DNA of 64,000 bases from an uncultured Candidatus Peribacteria bacterium (GTDB lineage: Bacteria > Patescibacteriota > Gracilibacteria > BD1-5 > UBA2023): positions 12,233-76,232 of the forward strand of contig CAZINU010000004.1 in assembly GCA_964540725.1 (NCBI GenBank), in the 5' to 3' direction. Below the pieces are notes generated by a model. It did not search any database, was not told the DNA's origin, and was given only the letters and a program-made list of their open reading frames with translations. Every line of letters begins with the position of its first letter. Position 1 is the first letter of the stretch. A program made the translations under genes and the position numbers. Positions 8,865 through 56,299 of the stretch are shown in pieces.

Positions 8865-9608
8865 ATGCCGAGACTTTTCCGTATCTCCCCAATTGTTCCG
8901 GTTTTGCTCGTCACGGCGTTCGCCGCGTCGTGCTCGGTGCGGTCGCCGTTTTCGACCGACCGAAGCTCCGACGACCGCTCCTCCGCCGCCTCGCGGCGTT
9001 CGGCCGAATCGGTCGTGGCCGAAGAATCGCCCGAGTTCCTCGAAGGCGCCCGAAAGGTCGACTACGCCCCCACGTTCTCGGGGTTCGCGCTTGCGCCGTT
9101 CGAAACGGGCTCCTCCGCCACGTTCTCGGGCGGCGTTTTAATGGTTGGAAAATCGTCGTTCACCGGTTCGCTCGTCCGGCTCCAGGGCGTTGAAATCGGC
9201 CCGGACGGCAAGGGCGGATGGACGTGCCGAAGCGAAGCGTCTTTCGTGCCGCCGGAATCCCAAAGCGGCGCGAGCGCCGTTGCCGTTCCTTTAAAAACCG
9301 CCCCCGCGATCTTCGTTCCCGGCTTTTCGAAAATGCGGCTGCTCGGAAAAACCTACGCCTACGCGCCCGAAAATCTTTCCGCCTACGGCAACGTCTTCGA
9401 TATCGACGCGTTCGTTACGGCCGACGGTACGGCGTACGTATTGGAATTCGAGAACGCCAAAGAGAAGGCTTCCAGAAAAGAAACGCTGGACGAATACGAA
9501 CGGAAGGTGCGCGAAGTGAAGGAACGGTATCCGGCCGACCCGGCAGTTGCCAACCGCCTGATCGACGCGCTGAACGATGCGTACGGAATCGACGCCACGA
9601 AGTTTTAA
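8865..9608 (+). CDS. Hypothetical lipoprotein
   Basis: MPRLFRISPIVPVLLVTAFAAS-C lipobox. TAA stop. Confidence 0.6.
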   Translation: MPRLFRISPIVPVLLVTAFAASCSVRSPFSTDRSSDDRSSAASRRSAESVVAEESPEFLEGARKVDYAPTFSGFALAPFETGSSATFSGGVLMVGKSSFTGSLVRLQGVEIGPDGKGGWTCRSEASFVPPESQSGASAVAVPLKTAPAIFVPGFSKMRLLGKTYAYAPENLSAYGNVFDIDAFVTADGTAYVLEFENAKEKASRKETLDEYERKVREVKERYPADPAVANRLIDALNDAYGIDATKF

Positions 9609-9632
9609 ACCGGTTTCCTAACCCCTTTTCCC

Positions 9633-10835
9633 ATGAAACGTTTCGCGCTCTCCGCGATTGTCGGACTCGTCGCCTTCTCGGTTCCGGCCGCATTCGCCGC
9701 GCCGAGCATGGAAGACTACACCTACGTCGACTGCCATAACGGCCAAGACTCCACGGCCGTTCCCTTCGACCATACCAAGCCGTACAGCACGCTCAAGGCG
9801 GCTATCGAGGGCAGCATCAACCATATCAACGCGAATTGGAACATTCCCGCCAACGCCCAAGCGGTGCTTTCGAAGCGGTTCGTCATCAAGGCGAAAGCGC
9901 TCTGCGTGTTCGACGGGTACGGGGCGAACGGAATCCGGCTGAATTTTTGAAACGGAAACGTGTATCACAATGATCTTTTCATTACTTCCGACGATACCGC
10001 AAAACCGTTCTGAATCCGTGGATACTATTTTTACGATTCCCAGATTGACGGGTACGCGAATCCTCGTTGAATAACCTTTGACTCGACGTATTTCATGGGA
10101 AGTTCCGCGGCGGCCGGAAATTCGTATTTCCGAATAAATTCGAACGGAATCGGCATTTCGAATAGCGTCATTACGATGGGGTCATCGCCCATGTTCCAAC
10201 AGCAGACTTGGAAATACCCCTACTGCAACGTTTCTTGGTGCGCGTACGCCCCGAATCCCGCGAATGCGAAAATCTCCAACTCCCTCATCCGCATTACCGG
10301 AAACCAGAATGCCGACACGAACTTCCTCATGCCGGGTTCCATCGAGAATTCGAAAATCGAGTTTACCGTTCCGAACGGGGCGAACGGAAAACTCATTCTG
10401 AATGCCGACGGAAGCAATTTCCTCAACCTCATCAAATCCACCCGCTTCGACCTGGGAGGCAAGAACGTCCACGTGAACGTCGACGTCGTAAACAGCCAAT
10501 TCACGAACTTCGGCACCTTTACGGCCGCCGGAGGTTGGAACGTCTTCACGAACAACACCGTGCTCCAAATGCCCGGGCTCCTTACGGTGAACAATTGGTA
10601 CTACGCGTACAACAACGTCTTCGCGCCGTACGGGATTGCCGATTCGTCCGACCCGAACAACGAGCGGCGGAACCTCCAGACGCCCGCGCAGACCGGCGGC
10701 GTTGGGTGGAGGTACCGCAAGGCCCTCGGCACCTACCTCGAGCAGAATTTCACCGACGCCACCCTCCGCAACGAAGCCGCGCCCGGAAGCGCTTCCGGCG
10801 AAACGTTCACGCCGACGTACCCGATCTTCCAATAG
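9633..10835 (+). CDS. Secreted protein with beta-helix-like repeats
   Basis: ORFs 9633..9950 and 10095..10835 are in one frame, joined through TGA at 9948, 10011 and 10068. Signal peptide MKRFALSAIVGLVAFSVPAAFA. Recurring xNSxI motifs (ISNSVIT, ISNSLIR, IENSKIE). TAG stop. Confidence 0.65.
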
Positions 10836-10855
10836 TAATCCTTACCGTTTTCCCC

Positions 10856-13800
10856 GTGCTTCCGACTCGGATTTTTCGACCGACGAAAGCCTTTCTGGCC
10901 GCCTTCTTGGCGATGGGATTCCTTTCGGTGAGCGTCGTTTCCGCCAACCCGGCGGTGTGAGGCCGCGCAGCTTGGAACGAATGGGACGGAAGCAGCCGTT
11001 CGGTCGTGCTGGATATCGACGCCCAGAAACGGACGGATTTGTCACTCCCTCCGGATTCGTACGTCGTTGCTATTTTCCGTGACGAAGGCATCGTGTACCA
11101 ACGGTGGGATGCCGGAACGTCCATGTCCGTATGCATATACAGGGATTCGGCTACGGGCGCCGAACGGACGCTTTTTTCGGACGGATGGCTGTCGTCGTTC
11201 GATCCCGAAACCGGAAACTACACGTATTCCGTATGGGGCGACGGCATGAGTCGCACGTACCGCGCAAACGTTGAAACGGACGTCGCGCCCACTCTCGTGC
11301 TCGCGGAGCCGAATGCATGAATCCAACAGTATTCCTCCGATCTCTCCCATGCGCTTATAAATCGGTACGATCCATTGACTGGATCGAACTCCATATATCT
11401 CAGGAACCTCGCTACCGGCTCGGAACGGCTCCTCGGTCCCTCGTATTCCGATTCGCCCGAATACTATTGGAACGCTTTCTTCGCCTTCTTCGGCGGATCG
11501 AACGACACCGTTGTCCGCATCGCTCGGGAATATCGAAAAAGCGACTGGACGCTCTCAGCACACTCGGGCGCCATTCTCGACGCGACGGATCCTTCGGCCA
11601 TTTCCGAGAGTCCGGCACCCATGAATTTCGGCCCCTACGGGTACTATGTCGGGTATAAGGGGAATCGGCATTTCTATGTCGTTTATGACGAAAATTGGAA
11701 CTCTTCCACCCATACCTATTCTGACGGCACCGACTCGGTCGTATTGGATGTGGGGAAATACCTCATGTCCGATTGACAAACCGGCCGTATGCCATGATAC
11801 GGCGATATTGTCGCCTACTCGTACTGGGATTCCGCATCGTCGAAAAACGTCGTGGAATGGATGAACGTCGCCACTTCGGCTACGGGTTCGATCGTTGACG
11901 GATGGGTGGACTCCAAAGCCCTCTCCCTCCGCCCTTGGAAAGACCCGTACGACCCCCTCGTCTTCTCGAACCCCATCGGGTGGTATTCGCCGCAGGCGTC
12001 GAATCCGGACGGAACGGCGTTCGAAAACGTCGCGTATTCGGGCGTGCTCGGAACCGCTCTCGCGGCCGAATCGATTCCCTCGTGGACGGGCGGCGTATTC
12101 GAATCGGGTGCCGGCCCCATGGGCGCGTACGCCACCATGGCCGCGGTTCCCGAATGGGCCGCTACGGCGTTCTCGTTCGAGGGTGGCAGCATCGGCTCGT
12201 ACGGATTCCGGGCCGAGTGGCTTCCGGCGTTCGCCTCCGAGGGATTCGCGTCCGCCGGTACGCTCGTAGGATCGTTTGGGATTCCTTCGGCATCGTGGCC
12301 GGAGTTCGGCTCCGGAACGTTCCTCGCGGAAGTTTCGGCCCCGGTGGGAAGCTTTGGCGCGCCGCTTTCGAGCGTTCCCCACTGGTCGGAATACCAATTC
12401 TCCCGCCTCGCCTCCCAAACCCCCGCCTCCGCCGCGCCGTTCTCCGGCACCGGCGGCGAATCCGTCCTCGCCGCCCGCGACGGCAACGGCGACGTCCTCG
12501 CCGAGGCCCAGGCGCCGGACAAGGACCTCATGGACCCCGTCGACCCCGCCACCGGCGACTTCCTGTACGAAAACGCCTTCCTCCGGCTCGCCGGAGGCCG
12601 CGAACCCTTCGAATTCTCGCTCTCGTACCGCTCCTCCGCCGGGTACGACGGCGCCTCCGGCCATGACTGGATCCACCCGTTCGAGCGCAAAATCCTCCCC
12701 GCCGCCGACGGTTCCGCCAAATACTCCGACGGCGAGGGCGGAACCTGGACCTTCGCCGCCTCCGGCACCGGGTACGCCCGGTCGGAAGCGCTGAAGGCCG
12801 GGCTCTCCCGCACCGGCTCCGGCGGGTGGCTCCTCTCGATGCGGAACGGCCGGACGGAAACGTTCGACCCCGACGGCCTCCTCGAAACCGTCGCCGACCC
12901 CGACGGCGTCCTCTTCTCGCTTTCGCGCGACCGGTACGGCAACCTCGCCTCCGTCGCGGATTCCCTGGGGCGCGTCGTCCGCTTCGAGAACGGCCAGGAC
13001 GGCCGCGTCGCGAAGGTTTCCGACCCCCTCGGCCGCGAAGTCCGGCTCTCGTACGCCTCGCAAACCGGCGCGGCGGCGACGCCCGGCGACCTCGTCTCGG
13101 TCTCCCTGTGGTACGGCACGGGCGCCGAAAAAACCGTCTCCTTCGGGTACGGCACGGGCGCGCACGACCTCCACAAGATCGTTTCGCTCACCGATTCCAA
13201 GGGGCAGGAATACGTAACCAACGGGTACGGCGCCGACGGCCGCGTCGCCTGGCAGCGGTACGGAGAAGGCACGGGGTTCTACTCGTACGTCCTTTGAAGC
13301 GTCCACGAAGACGATACGCCCGAATCCGCCGGCACCGGCCCCGTCGTCGGCGCGTACGTGGAAAAAACCGTCGTCACCGACCGCCGCGGCAACGTGACCG
13401 AATACGCGTATTCCCGCGCCGGCGCCCCGCTTTCGCGCACCGAACTCGGGTACGGCTCCGGAACCCTCGCCACGTCGTGGGCGTACGGCGCCGACGGCCG
13501 CGTCGCCTCGGAAACCCGGCCCGACGGAAGTTCGACCCTGTATTCGTACGACCGAGACGGCAACGTCTCCGAAGAGCGCCTCCGTTCGTCCGACCCCGCC
13601 GACGCCGACGTCGTCGTCCGGTACGGATGGGATTCCGAAGGCCGCCTCGCGGAAAAAACCGCCCCCGACGGTTCCCGGACGCTCTACTCGTACGACGCTT
13701 CCGGCCGCCCGACGTCGGTGGTCGCGGCCGCCGTCCGCCTCTCCGCGACCGGTTCCGCCGACCTCGGAACTTCCTTTTCGTACTCCGGCGGCTACCTCTC

Positions 13801-16800
13801 CGCGAAAACCCTCCCGGACGGCTCGCGGACGGAGTATTCGTACTCCGGCGGACTGCTCGCGGAAGTTACGGATTCCCTCGGAACCCTCCGCTACGCGTAC
13901 GACGCCGCCGGCAACCCGACGGCGGTCACGGACGCGGAAGGGAACGTTACCCGCTCCGAATTCGACGCCTTCGGCCGCGTCGTGAAAACCGTTTCCCCGG
14001 AAGGCCTCGAAACCCGCTACTCGTACGACGCCAACGACAACCGGATACGGACCGAACGCTCCGCCGGCCCCGGAAAAACGGCCGCGACCCGCGCGGCGTT
14101 CGGCCTGCTCGACGAAGTCCTGTCGGAGGAATCCGACCTTTCGGAAACCCTCACGGGCGCCCTCGAGACGCGGTACGACGCCAACGGGGAAGTCGCCGAA
14201 CGCCTCCTCCCGTCCGGCGTCCGCGAGAAGTTCCTCCGCGACCCCGCCGGCCGCGTCACCGAACGCCGCCTCGTCCCCGCCGACGCCTCGGAAGACGCCG
14301 TCGCCCGGTACTCGTATTCCGGCGGCCTCCTGGCGGAAGAAACCGACCCCCTCGGCCGGAAAACGGAATACCGGTACGACGGCTTCGGCCGGCTTTCTGC
14401 GGAAATCTCGCCCCTCGGCACCGAAACCCGGTACTCGTACGGGCCCTCCGGCAAACCCGTCCGCACCGACGTCCTCGACGCTTCCGGCGCCCTCGTCGCC
14501 CGATCGGAATCCGAATACGGTTCCGGCGGCCTCCTCCTCGTCGTCCGGTCCGCGGCGGTGGAAAACGGCGCCCCGGCCGGGGGAGCCCTCGAAACCCGTT
14601 ATTCGTACGGCCCCCTCGGAAGGAAAACGGAAGAAACCGCCCCGGGAGGGGGCAAGACCCGCTACGCGTACTCCGGAAGCCTCCTCGCTTCCGTCACGGA
14701 CGCGACGTGAAACCGCGCGGAATACCGGTACGACAAACGCGGCCTCGTTACCGAAACCCTTACCGTCTGAACCGACGGCACGGTCCTCGCCACCCGCCAC
14801 GCGTACGACCGCGACGGCCGCAAGACGGAGGAAACCGCCCCGGACGGCGGAATTACCCGGTACGGATACGGCCCCCTCGGCGACCTCGCCTCCGTCACCG
14901 GCCCCGAAGGAAACCGCACCGAATTCCTCCGCGACTTCCGCGGCCTCGCCACGGCCGAAACCGACGCCCTGGGCGGAACCGTTTCCGCCGGGTACCGCGC
15001 GGACGGCAACCGCGTTTCCCTCTCGGACGCGGAAGGAAAAACGACTGCGTACGCCTTCGACGGCTTCGGAAGGGAAAAAACCGAAACCCTCCCGGACGGC
15101 TCGGAGTACCGAACCCGGTACGACCTCGCGGGCAACGCCGTGGAAACCGAGGACCCGGCCGGCAACCGCGTGACCCTGGAATACGACGCGGAAAACCGCC
15201 TCGTCCGCAGAACCGCCCGAACCGCTTCCGGAACCGTCGGACCCGCGTGGGAAAGTTTCTCGTACGGCCCGCTCGGCGAACTGCTCGAAGCGCGGGATTC
15301 GGACGGCAACGCCGTGGCGTTCTCGTACGACGGGTTCGGAAGGAAGGAGGCTGAAACCCAAAACGGGAAAACCGTCTCGTACGCGTACGGAAACGACGGG
15401 CGGATTTCCTCCGAAACCCTCCCGTCCGGAAGGGTCCTGGATTACGCCCGGGACGCCCTCGGGCGCCCGACGGGCATGGCGGAAGGTTCCGGCCAATCCG
15501 CCCGGACCCTCGCCCAATACCAGTATTCCGGCCCCTTCCCGTCCGGAACCCTCCTCGGCAACGGGACGGCCGAATCGCGCCTGTACCAAAACGGAAGGCC
15601 CGCCGCCCTCGCGCTCTCCGTGCCCGGAAGCCAGGCCCCCCTCCGCGCGTACTCGTACGCGTACGACCGGAATTCCAACCCCCTCTCCGACGGGGAGGGC
15701 GGGTACGCGTACGACGCCCTCTCCCGCCTCTCGTCCGCCGGATACGGGACGGAATCGGAATCCTTCGCGTACGACCGCGCGGGCAACCGGACCGTCCGGA
15801 CGTCCACGGGAACGGAAACCGGAACCGCGGACTACGCGCGGAACCCGCTCGACCAGTACCCGGAAATCGCCCGAACCCTCTCCGGAGGAACCCAGACCGG
15901 CTCGTACCGCTTCGACCCCAACGGAAACCTCGTCGAAACCGACCGGCTCGTCCTCGAGTACGACTGGCATAGCCGCCTGAGGAAGGTTACGGAGAAGGAA
16001 TGGACCGAAACGGGAAGCCTCGGGCCGCGAATCCCGGAGGCGTATTTCCTGGGATCGGAGACGGGGAGCGGTTCGGAAACGGGCACGGGAACCGGCACCG
16101 GAAGCGGCGCCGAACCCCCGCCGGATTCCGGCAGCGGCAGCGGCACGGGAACCGGGGAAACTTCGACCGGGACGGTCCTTCCCCCCGATACCGGAACGTG
16201 AGCCGGAACGTGAACGTGAACGGAAACCGGGTCGGGCTCCGAAACTTGAACGTGAACGGCGGAAACCGGGACGTGAGCCTGAACCGGAAGCGGGGCGGAG
16301 ATCCCGCCGGAAACGGGCGCCGGTACGCAATCCAGCACCTGAACCGGAACGGGCGGAACCTCGTCCGGGACCGGGGAAACCTCGTCGGGAAGCTTTTCCG
16401 GCACCGGAACCTTCTCCATCTTCCACCCCGCCCGAATCCTCGCCGAATACGCGTACGACCCGCTCGGCCGCAGGATTTCCAAAACCACCGAGAATGCCGT
16501 CACCAAATGGCGCTACTCCGGTGAAAAAATCGTCCAAGAGACGGTCGAGACCCCCGTCGGACAACTCCTCCGTACCTCCGAATTCGCGTACGGCCCCGAC
16601 GGGGACGACGTCGTCGCCGAGTTCCGTACGGAGAACGGGAATCCCGAGGAAACCCGCTACTTCCTCAAGGACCGCCTCTGAAGTACCGTCGCGGTCACCG
16701 ACGGCTCCGGAAGCGTGCTCGAAGAATACCGCTACGACCCCTTCGGCAAGACGTACCGGAAAACCGCGGAAGGAACGTGGGAAGCCCTGAAGCCCGGACG

Positions 16801-17554
16801 GCAGACCGCCACCGACCGGCTCTACACCGGCCGCGAACGCGATCCCGAAACCGGCCTCTACCATTACCGCGCCCGGACGTACTCCCCGGAACTTTGAAGG
16901 TTCCTGCAGAGGGATCCGGTAGGCACCGCGGACCAATTGAACCGGTACGCGTACGTGGGGAACAACCCGATGGTGGCGACGGACCCGAGCGGGATGGTCA
17001 TCAAGCAGATGGTCAGGGGCGGCGTCGAAGGCGACTTCGTCGAGAATCCCACCGTATGGAACGACGTCGGCAACGCCGCCGTCGGGTTCGTCCCGGTCGC
17101 CGGCAACGCCGCCGGAATCCGCGATTCGGCCGCCGGGCTTTCCCGCTGCGAATGATTCGGGGACTGCGCCCTCGCCGCCGGCGACACGGCCCTCAACCTC
17201 GTCCCCGGGAAGAAGGGGGCGCAGGGGGTTTGGAAGTTGGGCCGAAGGGCATCACCCATCGTAAAGGAACAAATCCATCATTTCCTTACGAATAAAAGTA
17301 AAAGATTTACTCCCGAATTTGTAAAAATCGTATCAAAATACGATTTAAAATTAGATGAATCTTGGAATAAAGGGGCAATGGAGCATTTATGACGACACGT
17401 CGAGGATTATCACACCATGATGCTTTATCAGGTTAGGCGCATAGACGCCGTTGCTCGAGGATCTCAAAAAATATTCTTAAAAGAATTTGAGGCAATCAAG
17501 AAAAGCGTTATGGATAATCCAGATATACTTTATAAGAAGGGATGGTGACGCTAG
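10856..17554 (+). CDS. RHS/YD-repeat polymorphic toxin (WapA-like, Sec signal peptide)
   Basis: A single frame runs from 10856 to TAG 17552-17554 with no TAA/TAG and 20 in-frame TGA. Putative GTG start gives the signal peptide LPTRIFRPTKAFLAAFLAMGFLSVSVVSA. Many YD repeats (xxGxxxxYxYDxxGR). Core end is YFLKDRL-G-STVAVTDGSG...YHYRARTYSPEL-G-RFLQRDP...NRYAYVGNNPMVATDPSGM. The start codon is uncertain. Confidence 0.85.
16052..16412 (+). repeat. (Thr/Ser-Gly)n low-complexity linker inside the RHS gene, UGA-dense
   Basis: Translates as ETGSGSETGTGTGTGSG...TGTGAGTGTGTETGSGSETGTGT.... Eight Gly codons in 16199-16342 are TGA, partly as acgtga hexamer repeats. Confidence 0.8.
16646..17080 (+). repeat. 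Direct repeat copy 1 (RHS core end)
   Basis: 435 bp colinear with 18183-18617 (offset 1537, no indels seen, roughly 85-90% identity by eye). Confidence 0.85.
17081..17554 (+). other. Variable C-terminal tip of the RHS protein: PT-TG-like segment followed by an xHH-type HNH/EndoVII-like nuclease candidate
   Basis: VGFVPVAGNAAGIRDSAAG resembles the pre-toxin TG module. After it comes ...IHHFLTNK...SWNKGAMEHL-G-RHVEDYH (HH...N...H..H). GC drops sharply from about 17256. Confidence 0.5.
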
Positions 17555-17585
17555 CCTATTATACTTGTAATGCATAACTGACATC

Positions 17586-18170
17586 ATGACGTTCTTTTCT
17601 TTTGTACAAATGGATCCTCCTAAAAATTCGGGAGCGATGCTCCCGAAGGATCATAAAGTCTTCCAAGATTTTTGATGGGGCGAATACGATCTTGTTTGCG
17701 GAAAAAAGATTGAAAACTGGAATGATAGAAATGTTGCATTTTTTGAGCGAGATGGAGAAAAATCTAATTTATCTGAAGATTATTTGGGTACCACGTTACC
17801 TTGTCCTGTGATTTCTCGAAAATTTAAGGAATTACTCGAGAGGGAAAGAATTGAAAACATTCAATTCTTTCCAATTCGTATCGAAAATTTTAATAACCCT
17901 TCCGATATTTTCGAAGCCGAATATTTCATCGTGAATATCCTTGACGTTGTCGTCGGTGCTATTGACAAAAAAAAATCTATTTCTGACTGAATCGGGTGAT
18001 TTTTGAAAAAAACCCTTATTGAAAAAAAAATCAGCGGACACGATTGGTTTAGATTGTTCGAAGACCCTTTTCAGGACATTATTTCCGAACGAATAAAAAG
18101 ACTGTTCGAAGATAACTGTTCAGCATACGTTAAATTCTCTCGTATTATGGTCGTGGAACATTGAGATTAA
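17586..18170 (+). CDS. Imm11 (DUF1629)-like immunity protein
   Basis: 194 codons in one frame with TGA at 17673, 17988, 17997 and 18162, TAA stop. Motifs PVISRKFKELLERERIENIQFFPIRIEN...EYFIVNILD and ...WFRLFEDPFQDIISERIKRLFED match the Imm11 pattern as I recall it. Low GC. Starts 31 nt after the toxin stop. Confidence 0.7.
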
Positions 18171-18182
18171 TTTTAGATCCTT

Positions 18183-18617
18183 GAAGAAACCCGCTACTTC
18201 CTCAAGGACCGCCTATGAAGCGTCGTCGCCGTGACTGACGGAACCGGGAACGTCGTCGAAGAGTACCGCTACGACCCCCTCGGCAAGACGTACCGGAAAA
18301 CCGCGGAAGGGGCGTGGGAAGTTCTCAAACCGGGACAACGAGCCGCCACCGACCGGCTCTACACGGGAAGGGAACGCGACGCGGAGACGGGACTCTACCA
18401 TTACCGCGCCCGGACGTATTCCCCGGAACTCGGAAGGTTCCTGCAACGCGACCCAATAGGCACCGCGGACCAGATTAACCGGTACGCGTACGTCGGGAAC
18501 AACCCGATGGTGGCGACGGATCCGAGCGGGATGGTTATCAAACAGATGGTCAGGGGCGGCGTCGAAGGCGACTTCGTCGAGAACCCCGCCGTATGGAACG
18601 ACGTCGGCAACGCCGCC
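18183..18617 (+). repeat. Direct repeat copy 2 (RHS core end)
   Basis: Colinear with 16646-17080. Confidence 0.85.
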
Positions 18618-18660
18618 ATGACGGAAGGGAACGGTCCGTCCTTGAAGGACATCGCCCACA

Positions 18661-18693
18661 AAACCCCCTCCGAATCGGTTCGGAGGGGGTTTT
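18661..18693. terminator. Bidirectional intrinsic terminator
   Basis: aaaccccctccgaa-tcgg-ttcggagggggttt perfect hairpin between the orphan fragment and the convergent gene. Confidence 0.6.
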
Positions 18694-18704
18694 CAATATT
18701 CTTT

Positions 18705-19436
18705 CTACATCTTCATCCACCCGTTCGCAACGGCCATGATGCCGTTCAAAACTAAGAGGATGCCGAGCGCTTTGAAAAGTTCCTTGTCGTTCATTCGATG
18801 ATGGACGACGTTTCCGACCTTCAACCCCAGCAGTAACCCCGTGAATCCGGCCAATGCTTGAAGCAGTATGCCGGGAACGACGATGCCAGCGAGCAGGAAA
18901 GTGATCATCCGGATGTTTCCCTGGATCATGAAGATGAGGGAGAGCGTTCCGCGAATCTGGCTCTTATTCAGTTCCCGATTCGACAAGTAGATGACGTACG
19001 GGGGTCCGCCGGTTCCGAAAGCGCCGCTGATGGCCCCGCCGGCGAATCCGGCGACCGGAGCCCATTTCGGGCTGAGGGTCTTGACGACCTTCCAACCGAG
19101 AACGTGCTGCAATCCGAAGGCGGCGATGACGACGCCCACCATGATGAGCAATGCGGATTGCGGCAGTTTCACGAGGAGGAAAATGCCGATGGGCAAGCCG
19201 AGCAAACTTCCGAGAATCAGGGACTTGAATTCCGGCCAGACGATATCCGTTTTTCCTATCCGACTGAGGATGATATTGGCCAGTGCTTCCAGCAGGAGCA
19301 TGAGAATGACGACCTGGTGGAAGGGGAGGTAAATGGCCAACAATGGGGTAGCTATGAGCGAAGAACCGAATCCGGTCGCGGCCCGAATGAAGAAACAGAC
19401 GAACGCGATGAGTCCGGTAGCGAGTAATTGTTCCAT
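18705..19436 (-). CDS. TauE/SafE (DUF81) family anion exporter
   Basis: 243-aa polytopic membrane protein with a duplicated GxGGG-type pattern (RAATGFGSS..., GAFGTGGPP). TAG stop. Confidence 0.8.
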   Translation of the reverse strand: MEQLLATGLIAFVCFFIRAATGFGSSLIATPLLAIYLPFHQVVILMLLLEALANIILSRIGKTDIVWPEFKSLILGSLLGLPIGIFLLVKLPQSALLIMVGVVIAAFGLQHVLGWKVVKTLSPKWAPVAGFAGGAISGAFGTGGPPYVIYLSNRELNKSQIRGTLSLIFMIQGNIRMITFLLAGIVVPGILLQALAGFTGLLLGLKVGNVVHHRMNDKELFKALGILLVLNGIMAVANGWMKM

Positions 19437-19799: not shown

Positions 19800-21938
19800 A
19801 TGCGCCTCTTCGGCTTTTCCTCGCTCCCGAACGTTCGCCTTCCCGTCGCGGCGTCCGTTCTCGCGGCGTCCGCCATGCCCGCTTCCGCGGCGTTTTTCTT
19901 TTCCGAAGCGCTGCCGAACACGGCCGACGACGCGCTCCTCGAATACGTAGTCGTCGCTTCCGATTCGTGCGTGCCCGAAAGCCTTTCCGGATACGCGCTT
20001 TCCGACGCCTCCGGAAAATCGTTCACGTTCGGCCCCGGCGACGCGTTCGTTTCGACCGGAACCTTGAAAATTGGCCGGAACGTCACGAAAATCACGCTCA
20101 ATAACGAGAACGAATCGCTCTTCCTTCGAAACCCGGCATGAATCCTCGTCGATACGTTTTCGTACGCTACGAGCGTGAAAGGGGCGCCGATTTTCCGGGT
20201 TCCCGAAATTCCGTATCCGGCGTGCTTTCCGACGGAAAGCTTTGGCGTACCGGAAAATTCCGGCCAGTCGGACGGTTCGGAAGATTCGCCGACGCCGGAC
20301 GAAACGCTGTCCGAACCGGAGGTCGTGCCCGAAGAAGGCGCGTCCGTTCCCGGGGAAGGGGGAGCCGAAGAATCGGCCGATTCTTCCAGCAGTACCGATT
20401 CCGATGGGACCGGCGAATCCGAAGCGTCGGAAGATCCGGAATCCGAAACGGGGGCGACCGTGCCGGATTCTTCGGAGACCGACCCCGGAACGCCCGCTCT
20501 TCTATCTTCCGCTCCCTCCGAAGACCCTCTCGGATCTTTCGAGAATTCGACCGGGAGCGTTTCGCCGGAGGCGTTGTCGTGAGCGTCGTACGCCGAAGGG
20601 GAGTCGCTCTCCGCCGTACCTTCCCTCCGGACCGAAGGCGTTTCGGATATCCGGGCGACTCCCGAATTCCTTGCCGTCGTCGATTCCGATAGCGACGGAC
20701 GGTTCGATCGGTTGGACATAGCGTATTCCGAATCCGTCACGGGAACCGTAACCCTCTCGGGCATCTTTCTTTTTTCGGCGACCGGCGGACTCTTCGAATC
20801 CAAGGTCGCGACCGCGACCGGGTTTTTCCGGTCGGCGTCGGCGTCCGGTTCGGTGCTCTCCCTTTCGCTCTCGGGCCCGACGCTCGCGAAACCGTCGCTT
20901 CGCGTCGATGCGTCCACGTCGAGCGAACTCCGGCTGAAATCCACTGCCGACTTCTGACTCCGAACGCTTGCCTCCGGCCTTCCGGTCGCCCCCTTCGCGC
21001 TGACGACCTCGTTCGATGCGTATTCGAAAGACCGGGTATCGTTCGTTCCGCCGCCCCCGCCGCCCCCGGCAAGGGTGGAATACGTGGCCGTTCCGTCCGG
21101 CACTTCCTCGACAATCCCTTCCGTCACCTCGTCGGAACCGGCGTCCGCAAACATTTCGAAGGCGTCGAAGCCCCCGAAGGCGTCGAAAACGGCCGCGCTC
21201 GGCAAGGCGAAAGTTCCGGCGAAAAATTCGGCAAAAGCCCCGTCGGTCGGCGGCCCGAAACCCCCGAAACCCGCGCCGACGGAAAAATCGGCCGCCCCAC
21301 CCAAGGTGGCGGAAGGCGTCGCCGTCGTTCCTTCCCAGGGCGTCGACCTTCTTCCGGACGGCACGTACCGCTACGAGTGCTTCTCGAAAACGTCGTGCCC
21401 GGTTTCGCTGAAAGTCGAAAACGCCCCGAAGGGCGGATACTGGCAGTTCTCCGACGGGCGCAAGCGTTTCGGCAATTCGACCGGAACCCTCGGGAAAGGC
21501 TTCGCCACCTACCGGCTCCGCTACGTGGCGCCCTCTTCCGGGCGGGATACGGAAATCCCCGTCCTTCTCTCGGTCGTTCCGGCAGCGGAAGCGACTGCGG
21601 AAAACGTCTCTTCCCAAGCGAAGGCGGTTTCGAAGGCCCTTGCGGCATCCAAGAGTTCCGCCACGTCGTCCGGGACGAAAAAGACGTCCTCCGGTACGGC
21701 GTCGAAAACGTCGAAACTTCCGTCGTCCGAATCCAAGGAACTCTCGGGCTCGGGCGCCTGAGCGGCGGTCGGTTCGAAAAAGTCGCCGACCCTCCGTCCG
21801 CCCGGGGTCGAACCGTCCCGCGATTCGTTCGCGCTCGCCCTTATCGCGGTTTCGCTCGTTTCCCTCGGGCTTCTCGCCGGCGGATGGATCGGTTCGAGAC
21901 TCTTTCCGATTCCGGGCGAGCCGGTCGAGCGCGCCTAA
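19800..21938 (+). CDS. Lamin-tail-domain (LTD) surface protein with an acidic low-complexity region and a C-terminal TM anchor
   Basis: Four ORF fragments in one frame, joined by TGA at 20139, 20580, 20955 and 21759. Signal peptide, then the LTD pattern FSEALPNTADDALLEYVVV...LSGYALSD...LNNENESLFLRNPA-G-ILVDTFSY. C-terminal FALALIAVSLVSLGLLAGGWIG. TAA stop. Confidence 0.75.
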
Positions 21939-34353: not shown

Positions 34354-35478
34354 TTACCGATTATACCCCGAACGCCCGCCCGGAACAAATTCTTCCCACT
34401 TGCAATCCGTCCGGAGCGTGGTTTCGTAGGTCCGAACGGATCCGGCATCGGTTCGGACCGTGCCGATTTCCCGATTCCGATCGATTGAGTTTTGCGTAAA
34501 ATTCAAGCTTCCGACCCAGAGGCGCCGACCGTCCGCAAGTACCGCTTTCGCATGGAGCGCCGGTCAGGAAGAAGTCGTTACGGCCGCGGCGTTTCCGAGT
34601 TCCGACCGTATCTCGGGCACGTCTGATTTTTCCCGAAGGCAGACCGAAACCCTGATTCCGCCCCGGATTTTTTCCCGAAGAATCCGAAGCGTTTCGGCAT
34701 CCGAAAGGGAAGGTGCCAGAATTTCGAGACGCTCCGTCGCGTCCGAGAGGAATCCCCGGAGCTTTTCCCGCGCGTCGGAATCCGCCAGGTACGCCCGGTT
34801 CGGAACGGGTCCACGGTACGGGATTCCGGCGAAATCGGCCTCGAATACGGATCGGAGGAATCCCGCCATCTCCGGATCGTTTCCGAAAACGAAAAATTCC
34901 CGGTTCTTCGAAAAGCTCGTTTTCGCGTAGTTGGCGGTGGAAAACGAGTACGACCGCCCGTCGGCGACCAGGTATTTCGCATGGAAGTACGCGAAGGGGT
35001 CGTCCTTCGGGGCCCGCACATCCGCTCCGGCCGCGAGGAGCCGGTCCCGGGATTTTCGGTTGGCGTTCGGAATTCCGTAAACGTCCCGTTCGACGATCCC
35101 GCGAACCGACACCCCCCGTTTCGCGGCTTCCGAGAGGGCGCTTACGACGTCCGTGTCCGAAAGGACGTAGACGGTGAAAACGATTTCGCGTTCCGCGGAA
35201 TCCACGAGGCCGAGGAACCGCGCCTTCGGTTCGGGTCCCGGTCCGGCGAGGAAATCTTCCGAAATCTCCGTTTCGGCCCCCGTCCCCGAAAGCGCCGCGC
35301 CGGCCTTGTCCGGAAGGTTCGCCCGCACGTCCGGCCGCGTGGGGGATACGGTGCGAACGGATTCCCGGTATTCGGCGTACCGGGTTCCGAACGGGGTGAG
35401 CGCGAACGCGAACGCGAGCGTTCCCGAAACGAGCGCGAACGCGAACGCGCGGGGAAGAAAGTGTCGGGGAATCCGCAT
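34354..35478 (-). CDS. Phospholipase D-superfamily protein with two HKD motifs
   Basis: First HKD is FHAKYLVADG...STAN. TGA 34564-34566 read as Gly adds a second HKD, LHAKAVLADGRRLWVGSLNF. TAA stop at 34354-34356. Confidence 0.85.
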
Positions 35479-38241: not shown

Positions 38242-38949
38242 CTATTTTCTGAATTCGACGTCCCATTCCGTCCCCCCTCTCGAGAAGGTGAGCGTCACCG
38301 CGCCGACGGAGGTTCCGTCCACGTGGAATTCCTTTCTTCCGGACACGTTGCGTACCGAGAACGTTCCGTATGCCGCCGTGCCGGATTCGATTCGGGAGAG
38401 GACGAGCCGCGATTCCGGGGCCACGATGGAATTTCCGTTGTCATAAGGCCGGAAAACCACGCGGTTTTTCGGTTCGCCTCCGAAAAAGAACGAAGCCGAC
38501 CATTCGTCGTCGCGCCCCGGCGGGAGCGTGAAATCGAAGCTCCCGGTCGTCGCTACGACCCGTTCCGCAATATCGAAGAGTTTTCCGTTTTTCGAGAGCC
38601 GGAGAGCCCAGACGCCGGAGGCTCCGCCGCCGACGACGGCCGTTCCGGAGCCCGTCTCCCAATCGAACGCGGTCACGCTGCCGGATTCGGAGAGTCCGTA
38701 TCCGTCTTGGACGGCGACGAACCCGGGTTTGCCGGCTTCGAATCGGAGTTCGTACGATCCGACCGTTCCGTCGCGGACGTACCGATCGAATTCGGAGACG
38801 GCCGCCGAGGGGATCCGGAGGACGCGCTCGGTCGCCGATTTCGTCGCCAGGCGTTCGAACGCCGAGAACGACGCCGCCGAAACGACCGCCAAAACGGCGA
38901 CCGAGACGAGGAGTTCCGTAAGCGTGAACGCGTCGGGGGATTTCCGCAT
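38242..38949 (-). CDS. Prepilin-type N-terminal cleavage/methylation domain protein (pseudopilin)
   Basis: MRKSPDA-FTLTELLVSVAVLAVV signature. TAG stop. Confidence 0.75.
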   Translation of the reverse strand: MRKSPDAFTLTELLVSVAVLAVVSAASFSAFERLATKSATERVLRIPSAAVSEFDRYVRDGTVGSYELRFEAGKPGFVAVQDGYGLSESGSVTAFDWETGSGTAVVGGGASGVWALRLSKNGKLFDIAERVVATTGSFDFTLPPGRDDEWSASFFFGGEPKNRVVFRPYDNGNSIVAPESRLVLSRIESGTAAYGTFSVRNVSGRKEFHVDGTSVGAVTLTFSRGGTEWDVEFRK

Positions 38950-45859: not shown

Positions 45860-47821
45860 ATGCCCCACTCCCAACGCCCCGCTTCCCCGGAAACCCTTTC
45901 CGGAATCTCCTCTTCCGCCTCCTCCCGCGCCCTCGCCGCCCTCCGCGCCACCCGCTCCCGCGCGTTCCGTGGCTTCACCCTCGTGGAACTCATCGTCGTC
46001 ATCACGATCCTCGCCATCCTCGCCACCATCGGTTTCCTCGCCCTCTCCGGGTACACCTCGGACGCGGGCAGGTCCTCCGTCCTCTCCAACCTCCGCACGG
46101 TGGAGAAGGGCCTTTCCGTCACCGCGACCACCGCCGGCTCCTTCCCGGCCCCGACGGGCGGCGTTCCCGTGACCTTCTCCGGCGGCACCGCCTGGGTCCA
46201 GTGAACGGCCGGAAAAACCGTCATGGCGGAAATATGAATGGACGAACCCCCGAAGGACCCCGCGGGGAACGCCGAGTTCGAATACTCCGTCACCGCCAAC
46301 GGTCTCGAGTTCCAGGTTGGCTCCGCGTACCTCGCGGGAACGGCGCACGCCCCGGCCCCCGGAATCCCCTCCGCCCTCGCCGCGGACTCCGTCCCCGTCC
46401 CCAAGGCCGCCGTCTCCGGCAACTACAACGGCCTCTTCGTCCCCGTGAACGCCGGCGGGACGAACTTCCTGGTCCCCGCCCCGTCCATAATCCTCTCCGA
46501 CCTCTCCGTCCCCGAGCTGAAGTCCGCCCCCGCCTCCGGCCCCTCCTTCGTGGCCGACGGCCTCCCGGGAACCCCGGCCTCCTGGTCCGGGAAGGTCGCG
46601 GGCCTTTCCCAGACGGGAATCGCCTTCCCCGCGGCCAAAACCGCCGCCTACTCCTCCGCGACCGAAGCCTTCCCGGCGACGTCGACCGGCGTCGCCGCCC
46701 TCGCGGAAACCCTCGCGCAGGCGTACTCCGGCACGAGCCTCGCCGCCCTCCCGAAGGTTTCCGCGGTCGTGAAAGCCTCCGCCGCCGGCGATTCCTCCGG
46801 CCTCGCTTCCGCCGTCGCGGGGGCCGGGGTCTCCTCCCTCGGGCGGAACCTCGCCCCGGCGGTCGCCGCCCTCGCGGGCGACGTCCCCGCCGCCGGCTCC
46901 TCCGGCGGAAGCTCGGGAACGCCCGCGACGCCCGTCGACGGCGCGTGCGGGACTCCGAACGGCCAGACGCTCGTTTCCGCCCCCTCCGAAAACCTCTGTT
47001 CTCCCGGAACCCCCTCGGCCGTCGCCGACGGAGCCTCGTGGACGTGGTCCTGCGCCGGGACGGACGGCGGGGCGACTGCGAGCTGTTCGGCGGCGAAGCC
47101 GGCCGCGACGATCATCGGAAACGACGATTCCGGAAGGGGTTGGTCCGACGGGGCCTACGCCGTTTCGTGTTCCGGCTACCTGAACGCCCCGGCGGGATAT
47201 TCGTACTCCGGGTCTACTGGCAACGGCGTATACCAAATCGATCCGGACGGAGCGGGGGGATTCGCCGCCTTCAAGGCGTACTGTGACATGACGACGGACG
47301 GAGGGGGGTGGACCCGCTTTGTTAAATATCGGGATTCAATCGACCGCTCCTCGGTATGCGTAGCGAAATCCACCGCCGTTTCGTGTTCAGGGTACAAAAT
47401 CGGTTTGAACGGTGAATATTCGGAAATCCTGTTGAACGGTTGCGTCGATGGTGCGAAGACCACTATCCTTGTCGATATTCCACAAGTCATCAAGGACGCT
47501 TGGGTATCGTACGAAGGCGTTGACGGCGTCACTCCCGGAAGCGGGGCGTTCCGTTCGTGCGGCTCGACCGTTTCCAGAAAAGAGGGCGGAACTTGGCATT
47601 ATGGACACGAGCGCAATCCCTCCGCAACAGAATTCGAAACCCTGCACTTCGCCTCTAGCTGTATTAATTCGTGAATAGATTCCTGGTCGTATGCGAAATG
47701 GGGTGCTATCGATGCTGGCAATTCCGATCGAAGTTATTGGGGGACGGTTAACGGAACCGACCACTCTCGGTCATGAGGCGATACGTATTACGATGATTGG
47801 ATTTGCGCTTACGTTCGGTAG
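45860..47821 (+). CDS. Type IV pilin-like protein with a C-terminal fibrinogen-related (FReD-like) globular domain
   Basis: Prepilin signature RG-FTLVELIVVITILAILA. Fragments are joined by TGA at 46202, 46235, 47672 and 47774. Cys-rich module ACGTPNG...LCSPG...WTWSCAGTDGGATASC. FReD-like GVYQIDPDGAGGFAAFKAYCDMTTDGGGWTRF. TAG stop at 47819-47821. Confidence 0.75.
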
Positions 47822-47952: not shown

Positions 47953-48044
47953 TTACGATGCATGGGAAACGGGGAACGGAAGAACCGTCCGGCTGACCCA
48001 TTGGGGAATTCCCGCTTGCCGACCGGATCATAACCGCCCGATGC

Positions 48045-51000
48045 ATGCTCGAACGCTTCGCGAAATACTTTCTCGACAACCGAAAAATCACGCTCGTCGT
48101 CATTACGGCGATTTCGTTTTTCGGAATCCTCTCGTACGCCCTCCTTCCGAAACAGTACAACCCCTCCATCGTTGCTCCCGCGTTCGAAATCACGGTACCG
48201 GTACGCGGGTATTCCAGTGCCGACGCCGGCCGTTTCGTCGTCCGCGAAATCGAGAACCGCATGGCCGAGTTGCCGAGCATGGATACGGTGTACGGGTACG
48301 CGGGCGACGAGTTCGCGTCGGTCATGGTGAGTTTCGAGGTGGGAACCGACGCCGAAGCCGCGAAAACCCGGGTGTACGACAAACTCGCGTCGGACTATTC
48401 GTTCCGCCCGTTCGGCGTCGAATCCTTCTCGGTACGTTCCATCGATCCGGAAGAACTGCCCCAGGTTTCCTTCGCCGTCCGGTACGCGGGCGCGACGCTT
48501 TCCGAAAAGGAAGCCGGCATCTACGTGCGGGCGGTTGCGAACCTCTTGAAAGACCGCGTAAAATCGGTACCGGATTCCGCCGGACTCGACCTCGTGGGCG
48601 GGTATTCGAACGTCGTCTCGGTCGAGCTCCATCCGGAGCGGCTTCGGGCCTACGCTCTCACGCCCGATTCGGTCGTCGGGGCGCTCAGGTCCGCGGCCGG
48701 GTACCGCGCGGTAGGGACGCTCGAGGACGGAACGCGGAAAACGGTGGTCGCCCTCGACGGCGGAACCGAAACGCCCGAATCGGTCGCGGCCGCCGTCGTG
48801 GGAAACCGCGGCGGTGCCGACGTCTTCCTTCGCGACGTTGCCACGATTTCCCGAGGACCGTCGGATCCGGCTTCGTATTCGTTCGTCCTTTCGAAAACTT
48901 CGACCGGCATCCTCGAAGACGATCCGGCCGCGTTTCTCGGTGTCGCCAAGGTAAAGGGGAGCAACGCCGTCACGGTCGTCGACGGCGTCCTTGAAGCGGT
49001 CGAGCGGTTCCGAAAGGAACTTCCGTCCGACGTTCGTCTCGACGTGGTCCAGAACGAAGGCGAAACGGCCCGCGAAGCGACGAACGAGCTCCTCTTCCAC
49101 CTGTTCCTTTCCATCGGCATCGTCTTCGTCGTGCTCGTGCTGTTTTTGGGATTGAAGAATGCCGCGAACGCCGCGTTCTGCATCCCCATGGTTTTGGGCA
49201 TCGTCTTCGTCGTAGCCTTGATCGCGGGGCTCGACATCAACCGCATTACGCTTTTCGCGCTCATCCTTTCGCTCGGCATTCTCGTCGACGATTCCATCGT
49301 CGTCGTCGAAAACAACGCCCGGCACCTCGCGGAGCGGAAGAAACGCGGCGTCACCAAGAAGGAGGCCATCCTCGCGTCCGTTCGGGAAGTCGGCGTATCC
49401 ATCGTGCTTTCCACCGTTACCCGCATCGCGTCGTTTCTCGCCATGTTCGCCGTAACCGGCATGATGGGCGACTACATGAAGCCCATCCCCGTGTTCGCGG
49501 CTATCGCGCTCACCGCGTCGCTCTTCGTCGCGTTCAGCATCAATCCGTTCCTCGCCCACGTCTTCAGCAAGCACGAAGGCGGCCACCACGAAGAGGTCGA
49601 AACGCCCCTCCTTTCGCACTACGCCCGCCTCCTTTCCAAATTCGTCGGCGAAGGCGAACGGGAGACTCGGCGCCGCCGATGGCTGAAGCCGGCGTTCTGG
49701 ATATCGCTCGCCCTCGTCGTGGTCCTTCCCGTCGCGACCGACGTCTTCCGGGCCCGCATGCTCCCGAAAGCCGACAAGAACCAAGTCTACCTTTGGATCG
49801 ACCTCCCCCGGGACCGGACGGCTGCCGAAAGCGCCCGGGCCGCCAAGCTCGCGGGCGAGATGCTCCTCGACGCCGCGGGAAAATTGCCCGCGGAACTCCG
49901 CATTGCCGAATCGGTTTCGGCCGTCGCGGGCGAAGCGTTCCTTCCCGACTTCGCGAACCTCTTCCGCGGTGCCGAAAATCGGAAAGGAACGCATCAGTCG
50001 AGCCTTCGCGTCAACCTCGTTCCGGCACACGACCGCGGCCTTTCTTCGGAACGGTACGTCATTGCCGTCCGTCCGATCCTGCGCGAGGCCGTGCTCGCGG
50101 AATTTCCCGACGCCACCGTCCGCCTTCTCGAAGACCCGCCGGGTCCTCCGACCATGGCGACCCTCCACCTGAAAATCAAGGGGCAGGAGGGGCTCCCGCT
50201 CGACGGGCTGACGAAGTTCGCCGAAGCGGTCGCGGGCGTCGTCCGGGGGCTCGACCCCTCCGAGGGGGTCGTCGATCTCGCGGATACGTTTTCCCGGACG
50301 CTCCCGAAACTCCGCGTGAAGTTCGACCACGAACGGGCGTCGGACCGGAACGTCGACGTCGCCGCCGCCGAAGCGGCCCTCGCCGCCGCCCTTTCCGATT
50401 CGAAGATCGGCACCCTGCGGAGCGACGGATCGTCCCCCGAAGCCGAGGAAATCGTCGTATCGGTTCCGAAGAAATTCCGCGGAGATCCGTCGTACGTCCG
50501 TGCCGTTACCGTTTCGAACCGGATGGGGGAGCCCGTTCGGTTGGACGAAATCGCTTCCTTCGAGGCCGATTTCTCGGGACGCGACCGCAACACCGAGAAC
50601 CGTTCCGAAACCGTCCACCTGTACGCCGAAATCGGCGACAATTCCGTCGTATACCCCGTTCTGACGCTCTATTCGAAGTTCGACGACGGCGCGCTCGAAG
50701 CCGCCGGGTATCGAAAAATCTCGGCCACGCCCTACGGGATACGGTTCGTCGGATTGTCCGACGGAAAGGAGTACCGCGTCGAGTGGGGAGGGGAATGGGA
50801 ACTGACGATGGACACGTTCCGCGACATGGGACTCGCCATGGTCCTCTCGCTCCTCTTCATCTACTTCCTCGTCGTCGCCGAATTCAAGAGCTTCCGGGCG
50901 GGCGGCATCGTCATGATGACGTTCCTCTTCTCGTTTTTCGGCATTTTCCCCGGATTTTCCCTCTTGAACGCGATCGACGGCACGTACTTCACCGCGACGG

Positions 51001-51338: not shown

Positions 51339-51350
51339 CTCCCTTTTCCC

Positions 51351-51878: not shown

Positions 51879-51889
51879 TCCCCGTTCCC

Positions 51890-55750: not shown

Positions 55751-56299
55751 CTATGCTCCGCCCCCGCCCGAAACCCATCCGCGAATTTTTTCGCGCGCTT
55801 CCGGCAGGATTTCGCTTTCGAGCGTTCCCACTTCGTCCGGCTTGAATTTCGACAACACCCAATCGGCCGTATCGAACCGGGCGTCCCGCCCGATGCCGAT
55901 TTTGAGCCGGGCGAAATTTTCGGTGCCGAGGTGCTTCGAAATCGACTTCAGGCCGTTTTGTCCGCCCGACGAGCCTTTTTCGCGAAATCGGATTTTTCCG
56001 AACTCCATATCGATATCGTCGGAAACGGCGAGCACGTCCGTTTCGGCGTCGAGCTTGTAGAACGCCATGAATGGCGCGACGGCCTCGCCCGAGAGGTTCA
56101 TGTAGGTGAGGGGTTTCATGCAGAAAACCCGTTCGCCCCCGACCGTTCCTTCCGAGAGGAGGCATTTGAATTTCGGCGCGTCCGAAAAATCGGAAAACCC
56201 GTTCGCGCTCGCGAACGATTCGACGGCGAGGAATCCGGCGTTGTGCCGGGTGTTCCGGTACTCGTTTCCCGGATTTCAGAGTCAGACGACGAGTTTCAT
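55751..56299 (-). CDS. pth: Peptidyl-tRNA hydrolase
   Basis: [23 protein letters not shown], with both bracketed Gly encoded by TGA (56282-84, 56276-78). Joins ORF 55751..56119 in frame to give 182 aa. Confidence 0.9.

Follow-up and report, generated by a model that had tools for sequence, protein, structure and literature searches.

The locus described here lies in a 64,000-nucleotide stretch of contig CAZINU010000004.1 (the window; all positions count from its first letter) and raises two questions: in which genetic code its long plus-strand frame is read, and what the product of that frame might do. Taken as a whole, the locus is best explained as an RHS/YD-class polymorphic toxin with a linked candidate immunity gene, in a Gracilibacteria genome that decodes UGA as glycine, and we regard this explanation as very probable. 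The gene at its center is the following.

10856..17554, plus strand: predicted RHS toxin precursor of 2,232 codons that ends in TAG, its 20 TGA translated as Gly.

Between GTG at 10856 and TAG at 17552-17554, one frame of 2,232 sense codons contains 20 in-frame TGA and neither TAA nor TAG, and so has the extent given in a preliminary description of this DNA. From the local base composition, about 34 TAA/TAG and about 21 TGA triplets would be expected over the same length; TGA is therefore not avoided in this frame, while TAA and TAG are excluded. Under the standard code the frame falls into 21 pieces, where "8 or more" had been counted before. The GTG is the earliest start codon past the stop of the upstream gene and is aligned with the ATG starts of two homologues. 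An antisense frame (10733-17344) is also long and lacks TAA and TAG, and was rejected as a shadow frame, since its codon-position GC content is the mirror image of that of the plus frame.

Evidence on the meaning of TGA was drawn from the whole window, for which genes were called with a codon-usage model that treats TGA as a sense codon. This model gives 52 genes at a coding density of 89%, with 52 in-frame TGA overall. All 52 genes terminate in TAA or TAG and none in TGA, and 33 more in-frame TGA are spread over 25 other called genes. In the Pth gene (55751-56419, minus strand) TGA encodes both glycines of the GLGNPG motif (VV-G-L-G-NPG), which is a compact diagnostic of code 25 for this genome. 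Within the Rhs core, TGA supplies the G of ...ELGRF... and of ...DRLGS..., both aligned with Gly in PDB entry 8qja, and the former glycine is encoded by GGA in a paralogous copy of the core end. Elsewhere in the gene, TGA codons fall on Gly columns of the alignment with the two homologues, and in a Thr/Gly-rich stretch each of them continues the T-G alternation as G. Judged from the sequence, TGA is glycine, and the genome uses code 25, as had been proposed; code 4 is set aside because TGA stands at invariant glycines. Selenocysteine and local readthrough at TGA were likewise rejected. A single tRNA, Arg(CCT), is present in the window.

A decayed pseudogene in a standard-code genome, UGA read as Trp (code 4), or recoding confined to this locus would offer another account, and public gene calls appear to lend it some substance. 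The public protein collection holds the locus only as standard-code fragments of 478 aa (amino acids) and 174 aa (P0001 and P0002), into which the RHS gene is split, together with P0003, the Imm11 product read with table 4 and thus with Trp at four TGA positions. Such an account would have to accommodate 2,232 codons with no TAA or TAG against about 34 expected, the 33 TGA in 25 other genes, the complete lack of called genes ending in TGA, and TGA at invariant glycines of Pth, of the GRF and LGS motifs of the Rhs core and of the T-G repeats. We give it practically no chance, and at the level of sequence it is already refuted. The public record also shows that an earlier expectation, that standard-code annotation would miss the locus entirely, was too strong: P0001 retains RHS and DUF6531 matches, and what is lost is the architecture.

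EF-G, encoded at the window edge, places the genome in the Gracilibacteria (Patescibacteria/candidate phyla radiation [CPR]) by best-hit ranking rather than by a tree: its best matches are Gracilibacteria and Patescibacteria metagenome-assembled genomes at 78-92% identity, several of which themselves carry in-frame TGA in EF-G. The window has 59% GC, and most related Gracilibacteria loci have 22-43%; the only GC-rich relatives encountered were L005 (56%, the closest relative) and L083 (59%). Outside the RHS locus TGA accounts for 2.5% of Gly codons (33/1,333), and in Gracilibacteria at 26-30% GC it accounts for 9-73% of the Gly codons of EF-G.

Translated with table 25, the precursor resolves into the parts listed here.

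10856..10945, plus strand: Sec-type signal peptide, aa 1-30 (hydropathy profile; homologues).
10946..12052, plus strand: lineage-specific N-terminal domain, aa 31 to ~399 (homology to the RHS N-termini of loci L082 and L083 only).
12053..12445, plus strand: five ~24-aa Gly/aromatic-rich repeats (…W…F…G…GS[FY]G), aa ~400-530 (read from the sequence).
12533..12754, plus strand: DUF6531, aa 560-633 (PF20148, E 1.1e-13, 51.7 bits, cut-off 24.1).
12533..16996, plus strand: RHS/YD-repeat shell through the core end DPSGM (RHS_repeat, YD_repeat_2x).
16043..16435, plus strand: Thr/Gly/Ser/Glu-rich low-complexity insertion, aa ~1730-1860 (imperfect tandem repeats).
16733..16996, plus strand: Rhs-associated core, aa 1960-2047 (TIGR03696, E 1.9e-24, full model 1-76/76).
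16997..17254, plus strand: pre-toxin linker, 69% GC, aa 2048-2133 (first 28 codons in common with a downstream orphan copy).

The predicted signal peptide has a basic n-region (R5, R8, K11), a hydrophobic core and a VSA|N cleavage site. Two homologues begin at the aligned position with predicted signal peptides of their own (AFA|N and VYA|D), in agreement with the signal-peptide start first suggested. A twin-arginine motif and a lipobox were looked for at this N-terminus, and neither is present. Scanning of the whole RHS protein gave no PAAR, VgrG, LXG, wall-binding or Tc component, and no known trafficking feature other than the signal peptide was found in it; no secretion-system gene was found among the scanned flanking and window genes, which make up only part of the genes of the window.

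The non-RHS part that follows was estimated at about 330 aa in the preliminary description and measures about 530 aa (aa 31-559). It consists of a domain of about 370 aa, the five repeats of about 24 aa and a short linker. For the domain, a Peptidase_S9_N match (E 0.004-0.008) stayed below the Pfam cut-off, and an hhalign comparison with a DPPIV_N-like propeller gave a probability of 7%, with a blade motif, 'IYLRNLATG', in common with P0008; the domain could possibly be a beta-propeller, which we treat as a lead and not as a finding. No other Pfam family was matched in aa 31-559, and a family search with the Gly/aromatic repeats (aa ~400-530) gave no match, although G-x-[IV]-G-[SY]-[YIL]-G repeats occupy the equivalent place in L083 and L082.

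The shell begins with DPVDPATG at 12533 (aa 560), close to the position near 12540 first assigned to it, and DUF6531 starts at the same residue; we take this domain to be the N-terminal plug of the cage, as in solved Rhs structures. Pfam and NCBIfam searches of the table-25 translation matched RHS_repeat (PF05593) in 10 stretches at E 2.5e-93 and YD_repeat_2x (TIGR01643) at E 2e-79. Together with the core (TIGR03696, E 1.9e-24), the AHH tip and Imm11, the RHS_repeat match lies above its cut-off, and the RHS assignment made before any profile search thus holds. The best solved relatives of the shell are the cages of type VI secretion system (T6SS) Rhs proteins, 8qja and 7q97 (E 1e-33 to 1e-35); teneurin-like proteins are also among its structural relatives.

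The Thr/Gly-rich stretch had been described as a TG-rich linker; the stretch is there, at about 16043-16435, and its placement between shell and core did not hold up. In the alignment to 8qja, the gap around it amounts to 149 residues here (aa 1714-1862) against about 10 in the structure, and the shell alignment resumes past it, which makes it an insertion of about 130-150 aa in a shell loop rather than a shell-core linker. Tandem Repeats Finder (TRF) reported periods of 12, 36 and 21, and 8 of the gene's 20 TGA codons are concentrated in a run of about 50 codons inside this stretch, whose length could vary by slippage.

At the core end, recognized earlier as DPSGM, the motifs read ...GRFLQRDP...(23 aa)...DPSG|M, with QRDP at aa 2018-2021 and DPSGM at aa 2043-2047 (16982-16996). 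Both GRF and DP can be recognized when the protein is aligned to 8qja. The Asp residues of QRDP and DPSGM are presumably catalytic, as in TcC/Rhs structures. The linker between core and tip (aa 2048-2133) gave no match in a family search, and the PT-TG domain that had been suggested for this protein was not detected.

The C-terminal tip and the gene behind it were assigned as a toxin-immunity pair.

17255..17551, plus strand: AHH nuclease domain (HNH/EndoVII superfamily) and C-terminal tail (PF14412).
17586..18170, plus strand: candidate immunity gene of the Imm11 family, 194 aa, with 4 TGA translated as Gly (PF07791).
17252..18182, unstranded: low-GC island (32-42% GC) comprising the AHH domain and Imm11 (composition profile).

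AHH (aa 2134-2205) scored 26.0 bits when the full protein was searched and 30.8 bits when the tip was searched alone, against a cut-off of 22.3. The motif order of Tox-AHH is given as [AG]HH, N, H, H, Y (PMC3482391), and the tip follows it with IHH at 2140-2142, N2171, H2177, H2181 and Y2185, Ile replacing Ala/Gly at the first position. Imm11, already noted as an Imm11-like gene 31 nt downstream, starts with ATG at 17586, at that distance from the RHS stop, and was matched at E 5.1e-10 and 39.4 bits (cut-off 22.1). AHH-Imm11 is a documented toxin-immunity pairing and serves kin discrimination in Myxococcus (PMC3482391, PMC12077181).

Part of the core end recurs behind Imm11, ahead of a terminator that separates the locus from a convergent gene.

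16646..17080, plus strand: left copy of a 435-bp direct repeat, core end and first 28 tip codons (blastn, pairwise alignment).
18183..18617, plus strand: right copy, startless "orphan" core-end fragment (TIGR03696, E 7.6e-26).
18660..18693, unstranded: strong bidirectional intrinsic terminator with a 15-bp stem (AAAACCCCCTCCGAA tcgg TTCGGAGGGGGTTTT) that divides the RHS locus from TauE.
18705-19436, minus strand: TauE gene (Pfam, E 3.1e-27).

The two copies are 87% identical, and the right one begins 12 nt past the Imm11 stop, inside a stop-to-stop frame (18177-18755). The final 46 codons of this "orphan" open reading frame (ORF) cross the terminator hairpin, which lies 43 nt past the copy and is common to the RHS locus and TauE, and are noncoding. 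The orphan itself had been recognized before; what it contains is the core end, with neither toxin domain nor immunity gene. Codon changes between the copies comprise 34 synonymous and 14 non-synonymous ones (dN/dS 0.11, dS 0.49), and the last ~130 nt are 93-100% identical. Because divergence is mostly synonymous, the copies appear to come from two diverged functional alleles and not from a recent duplication in place. C-terminal displacement is a model from work on enterobacterial rhs genes, and in the history that we propose the right copy is a recombination scar of such a displacement. Two features speak for tip replacement, namely the foreign composition of the cassette and the displaced core-end copy; the orphan is tipless, and no related locus was retrieved with its C-terminus.

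GC content drops from 63-69% to 32-42% at about 17250 and climbs back at about 18180, and the island as a whole has 36% GC. On the left the island begins exactly where the AHH match does (aa 2134), 86 codons past DPSGM and 170 nt beyond the repeat, and on the right it ends with the Imm11 stop. Codon usage changes as well, with TGA making up 6 of the 17 Gly codons in the island (35%) against 2.5% in the other genes. These data suggest that the AHH and Imm11 cassette is foreign and came from a low-GC donor, which would be a code-25 rather than a standard-code organism because in-frame TGA would otherwise break the cassette. In both island genes TGA is the second-to-last sense codon (17546-17554, ...GW-TGA-R-TAG; 18162-18170, ...EH-TGA-D-TAA), for which we estimate a chance of about 0.2%, and the same genes also hold internal TGA-Gly codons. 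The penultimate TGAs hint at relict terminators and thereby at an older standard-code origin, after which the genes would have spent a long time in a low-GC code-25 lineage.

An abrupt fall in GC content between the two copies of a 435-bp repeat, of the type that confuses assemblers, is also what an assembly chimera could produce, in which reads of a low-GC Gracilibacterium were joined through the repeated core-end sequence. A separately built contig, L081 (1,293 nt, run SRR5011273), breaks inside both repeat copies. The same contig matches window positions 17017-18309 at 100% identity, across both GC junctions and including the unique joint between Imm11 and the orphan, although it was possibly assembled from the same reads. 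Moreover, the left junction (~17250) lies 170 nt past the repeat in unique sequence and is in frame at the start of AHH (aa 2134), and a GC-rich core with an AT-rich tip is the classical composition of Rhs genes. A chimera, which the preliminary description had named as a possible flaw, is accordingly very unlikely in our estimate.

With the cassette in view, a different function for the protein can be weighed, that of a surface adhesin or scaffold of the teneurin kind whose C-terminal nuclease is vestigial. The large N-terminal domain and the flexible Thr/Gly-rich insertion of about 130-150 aa do suggest surface display, teneurin-like proteins figure among the structural relatives, and the AHH score is modest, with IHH instead of AHH. 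A vestigial nuclease is difficult to reconcile with the presence of every Tox-AHH motif position listed in PMC3482391, with intact core cleavage motifs or with an intact Imm11 gene retained 31 nt downstream, and the recent import of the cassette would be hard to account for unless toxin function was under selection. We therefore consider an adhesin very unlikely and favor the toxin.

Two genes lie upstream of the toxin gene in the same orientation.

8865..9608, plus strand: w1, predicted lipoprotein (MPRLFRISPIVPVLLVTAFAAS|C), no TGA, stop 24 nt before w2.
9633..10835, plus strand: w2, predicted secreted 400-aa Asn/Gly-rich protein with a signal peptide (homologues in L082 and L083).

A gap of 20 nt separates w2 from the RHS gene, and about 500 bp of AT-richer noncoding DNA precede w1. 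Relatives of the locus were sought with a HMMER scan of 1.8 billion representative proteins, in which the query was a 151-aa TGA-free piece of the N-terminal domain, and two real relatives emerged, P0007 and P0006. The former belongs to L082, a contig of 22% GC, and is GenBank entry MDD4151526.1, annotated as 'DUF6531 domain-containing protein, partial [Candidatus Gracilibacteria bacterium]'. Its RHS gene has 91 in-frame TGA and repeats the order of parts seen in the window: behind the signal peptide come a homologous N-terminal domain and Gly-rich repeats, then DUF6531, in an unchanged position, and RHS repeats. The latter, P0006, is a standard-code fragment, 64 aa long, from a third gene of this type, which lies on metagenome contigs of 59% GC (L083); read with table 25, L083 has an open frame of 1,370 aa with 15 TGA and 35% identity to the window protein. 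On L083 and a 42-kb sister contig, this homologous RHS gene is shredded into ORFs of 45-433 aa.

The upstream genes are conserved along with the toxin gene. w1 is 31% identical (E 1.4e-34) to its counterpart at the same position upstream of the L082 RHS gene. For w2, the alignment to the immediate upstream neighbor of that RHS gene covers 435 aa at 30% identity (E 1.6e-26), and the alignment to the L083 counterpart in the same place covers the last 135 aa of w2 at 37%. As homologues of w1/w2 precede Sec-signal RHS genes in two other Gracilibacteria contigs, we propose that w1, w2, RHS and Imm11 (8865-18170, ending at the hairpin 18660-18693) probably form one conserved operon. Neither w1 nor w2 has a Pfam relative, and a PDB sequence search with them was likewise empty. 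An AF2 single-sequence model of w2 reached a pLDDT of 40 and was unusable; a right-handed beta-helix is a guess from its Asn-rich repeats and an N-terminal motif. Other searches yielded little. Queried with the N-terminal 637 aa, the tip or Imm11, protein searches recovered nothing but fragments of the window itself, and no relative was found in a genome contig scan with aa 315-813 or in metagenome scans with a core-end alignment and with a w2/u2 alignment. An exact look-up of FtsH and a literature look-up of run SRR5011273 were empty as well.

By analogy with the established biology of Rhs, WapA and Tc proteins, the parts of the locus could act as follows. The 2,232-aa precursor would be exported by Sec and its signal peptide removed after VSA30. 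The N-terminal region (aa 31-559) may anchor the protein to the producer surface, bind the target cell, or do both. Plugged by DUF6531, the YD shell (aa 560-2047) would encase the C-terminal ~185 aa, and the core would cleave itself at DPSG|M with the Asp residues of QRDP and DPSGM. Once released, the AHH (HNH/EndoVII-type) nuclease would enter a neighboring recipient cell and degrade nucleic acid there, and Imm11 would neutralize it in the producer and its kin. In this scheme, nuclease and immunity genes are presumed to be foreign DNA with the codon usage of a low-GC code-25 organism, and the downstream core-end copy would have been left by C-terminal displacement through recombination. Cotranscription with w1 and w2 appears likely from their arrangement, and the two genes might conceivably serve to mount, dock or release the cage.

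The recipient in this scheme might be a competing relative. The same toxin might instead serve mainly as a weapon against a host or prey bacterium, with Imm11 for self-protection and with w1/w2 and the N-terminal domain for docking to the host. Those code-25 relatives that have been cultured or observed live as epibiotic predators and have elaborate surface proteins (PMC8080830). Like the N-terminal domain, w1/w2 are lineage specific and conserved from 22% to 59% GC, and the window also codes for pilin-adhesin fusions and other exported proteins. On the other side, linked immunity, AT-rich swapped tips and orphan scars are hallmarks of conflict between relatives, the lifestyle of the organism cannot be read from the window, and nothing in it points to a target. 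A weapon aimed chiefly at a host is possible, though we think it less likely than not.

A more far-reaching proposal joins these strands: w1, w2 and the Sec-signal RHS protein could constitute a Gracilibacteria-specific system for contact-dependent delivery, in which the lipoprotein and the Asn-rich protein mount the cage on the surface of an episymbiont or dock it to the host. The system would be served by a pool of cassettes effectively private to UGA=Gly lineages because in-frame UGA is untranslatable elsewhere, and the penultimate TGAs would be a relic of older entry from a standard-code donor. Taken jointly, these propositions are speculative, and we doubt that all of them will hold.

Several points weigh against the toxin explanation as presented. 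The AHH match is only a few bits over its cut-off, with Ile instead of Ala/Gly as first motif residue. Protein and PDB sequence searches retrieved no close homologue of the tip or of Imm11, so that neither a donor nor an alternation of tips in the population was observed, and switching from a silent store of tips is unsupported, as the orphan carries no alternative toxin. The continuity of the island is vouched for by L081, possibly a re-assembly of the reads behind the original contig. Synteny comes from three loci, with w1 seen in L082 only. Finally, the N-terminal domain, w1 and w2 have no assignable fold, which makes the delivery step a guess.

With their small genomes, Gracilibacteria and their code-25 relatives live as episymbionts or predators, and little has been learned about how they harm or compete with other cells. 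The locus offers a concrete effector candidate, a predicted nuclease with its antidote, and the conserved three-gene module may point to the delivery machinery. A cassette with donor-like UGA-Gly usage also provides a small, clean case of code-25 gene flow across very different GC contents. Full-text literature searches turned up no paper on RHS or polymorphic toxins in either Gracilibacteria or Absconditabacteria; the Vampirococcus paper (PMC8080830) speaks of giant surface proteins but not of RHS. Standard-code gene calling shreds the RHS genes of code-25 lineages; at least one homologue is already annotated under table 25 in GenBank (MDD4151526.1).

Other genes of the window code for predicted surface or exported products. 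One gene downstream of the RHS locus, 19800-21938 (plus strand) encodes a 712-aa Ser/Pro/Glu-rich predicted exported protein with a C-terminal membrane anchor, 4 TGA and a sub-threshold Lamin Tail Domain match (28.7 bits, cut-off 34.3). A type IV pilin-like protein (45860-47821, plus strand) combines an N-terminal methylation motif (aa 34-58) with Fibrinogen_C (aa 450-492, 25.2 bits, cut-off 22) and is possibly an adhesin carried on a pilus; another pilin-like gene is found at 38242-38949 (minus strand). A predicted secreted PLD-like enzyme (34354-35478, minus strand; PLDc_2, E 3.9e-35) and a cluster at 47958-53812 (plus strand) are unusual cargo for a small Patescibacteria genome. The cluster comprises a large RND-type-looking transporter and a TetR-looking regulator, both assigned without a Pfam scan, and an HlyD-like lipoprotein identified by Pfam.

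Among known systems, WapA of B. subtilis is a Sec-exported YD/RHS contact-dependent toxin with the immunity protein WapI, and it is compared with the locus here at the level of general features. WapA has in common with the window protein a signal peptide, long YD/RHS repeats, a core ending in DPxG, a variable nucleic-acid-targeting tip, an immunity gene directly downstream and the lack of a T6SS or type VII secretion system trafficking domain. WapA has wall-binding repeats after its signal peptide and tRNase tips, whereas the window protein has about 530 aa without a known domain and with homologues in Gracilibacteria only, and its tip is an AHH nuclease. The locus is set apart further by its genetic code and by two conserved genes for exported products upstream. 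The likeness to WapA/Rhs loci drawn earlier is supported. By analogy, the locus would work like WapA, yet it is no member of the WapA family because the wall-binding repeats are missing.

T6SS Rhs effectors (8qja, 7q97, 8qjb/c/d and Tse5, 8cp6) give the best shell and core matches (E 1e-30 to 1e-35), and plug, cage, core cleavage motif and an encapsulated C-terminal toxin are common to them and, as predicted from the sequence alone, to the window protein. In contrast to these effectors, the window protein has no PAAR, VgrG or other T6SS element and is predicted to be exported by a signal peptide, and the Thr/Gly-rich insertion of about 130-150 aa replaces about 10 residues in the solved Rhs structure. 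The TcB-TcC cocoons of Tc toxins (TcdB2-TccC3, YenC2) align with the Rhs core at E 1e-14 to 1e-17, and an enclosed and cleaved C-terminal toxin would be shared with them; unlike in Tc systems, no TcA/TcB-like gene was found, and w1 and w2 have no similarity to Tc components.

Enterobacterial Rhs genes, in work by Jackson et al. 2009 and Koskiniemi et al. 2014, reportedly have a GC-rich core, an AT-rich tip, orphan core-end fragments and C-terminal displacement. The window locus resembles these genes: shell and core have 64-69% GC, above the 59% of the genome, tip and immunity gene have 36%, and a startless core-end copy lies downstream, with dS 0.49 and a dN/dS of 0.11 that indicates purifying selection. 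It differs in that the orphan has no toxin or immunity gene, and thus offers no alternative tip, and in that the GC breakpoint lies 86 codons past DPSGM and not at DPSGM.

The known AHH-Imm11 pairs (Zhang et al. 2012; the Myxococcus xanthus T6SS and SitA) are matched here by two families above their Pfam cut-offs and an immunity gene directly downstream. The present pair departs from them in its Sec-RHS carrier, in its occurrence in a member of the CPR, a phylum that the phyletic lists of 2012 do not include (PMC3482391), in IHH for [AG]HH and in its UGA-Gly codons. Overall, the core biology of this locus is standard and leaves the understanding of RHS toxin action unchanged; its lineage-specific features are the N-terminal module with w1/w2, the insertion in the shell and the exchange of cassettes among code-25 lineages.

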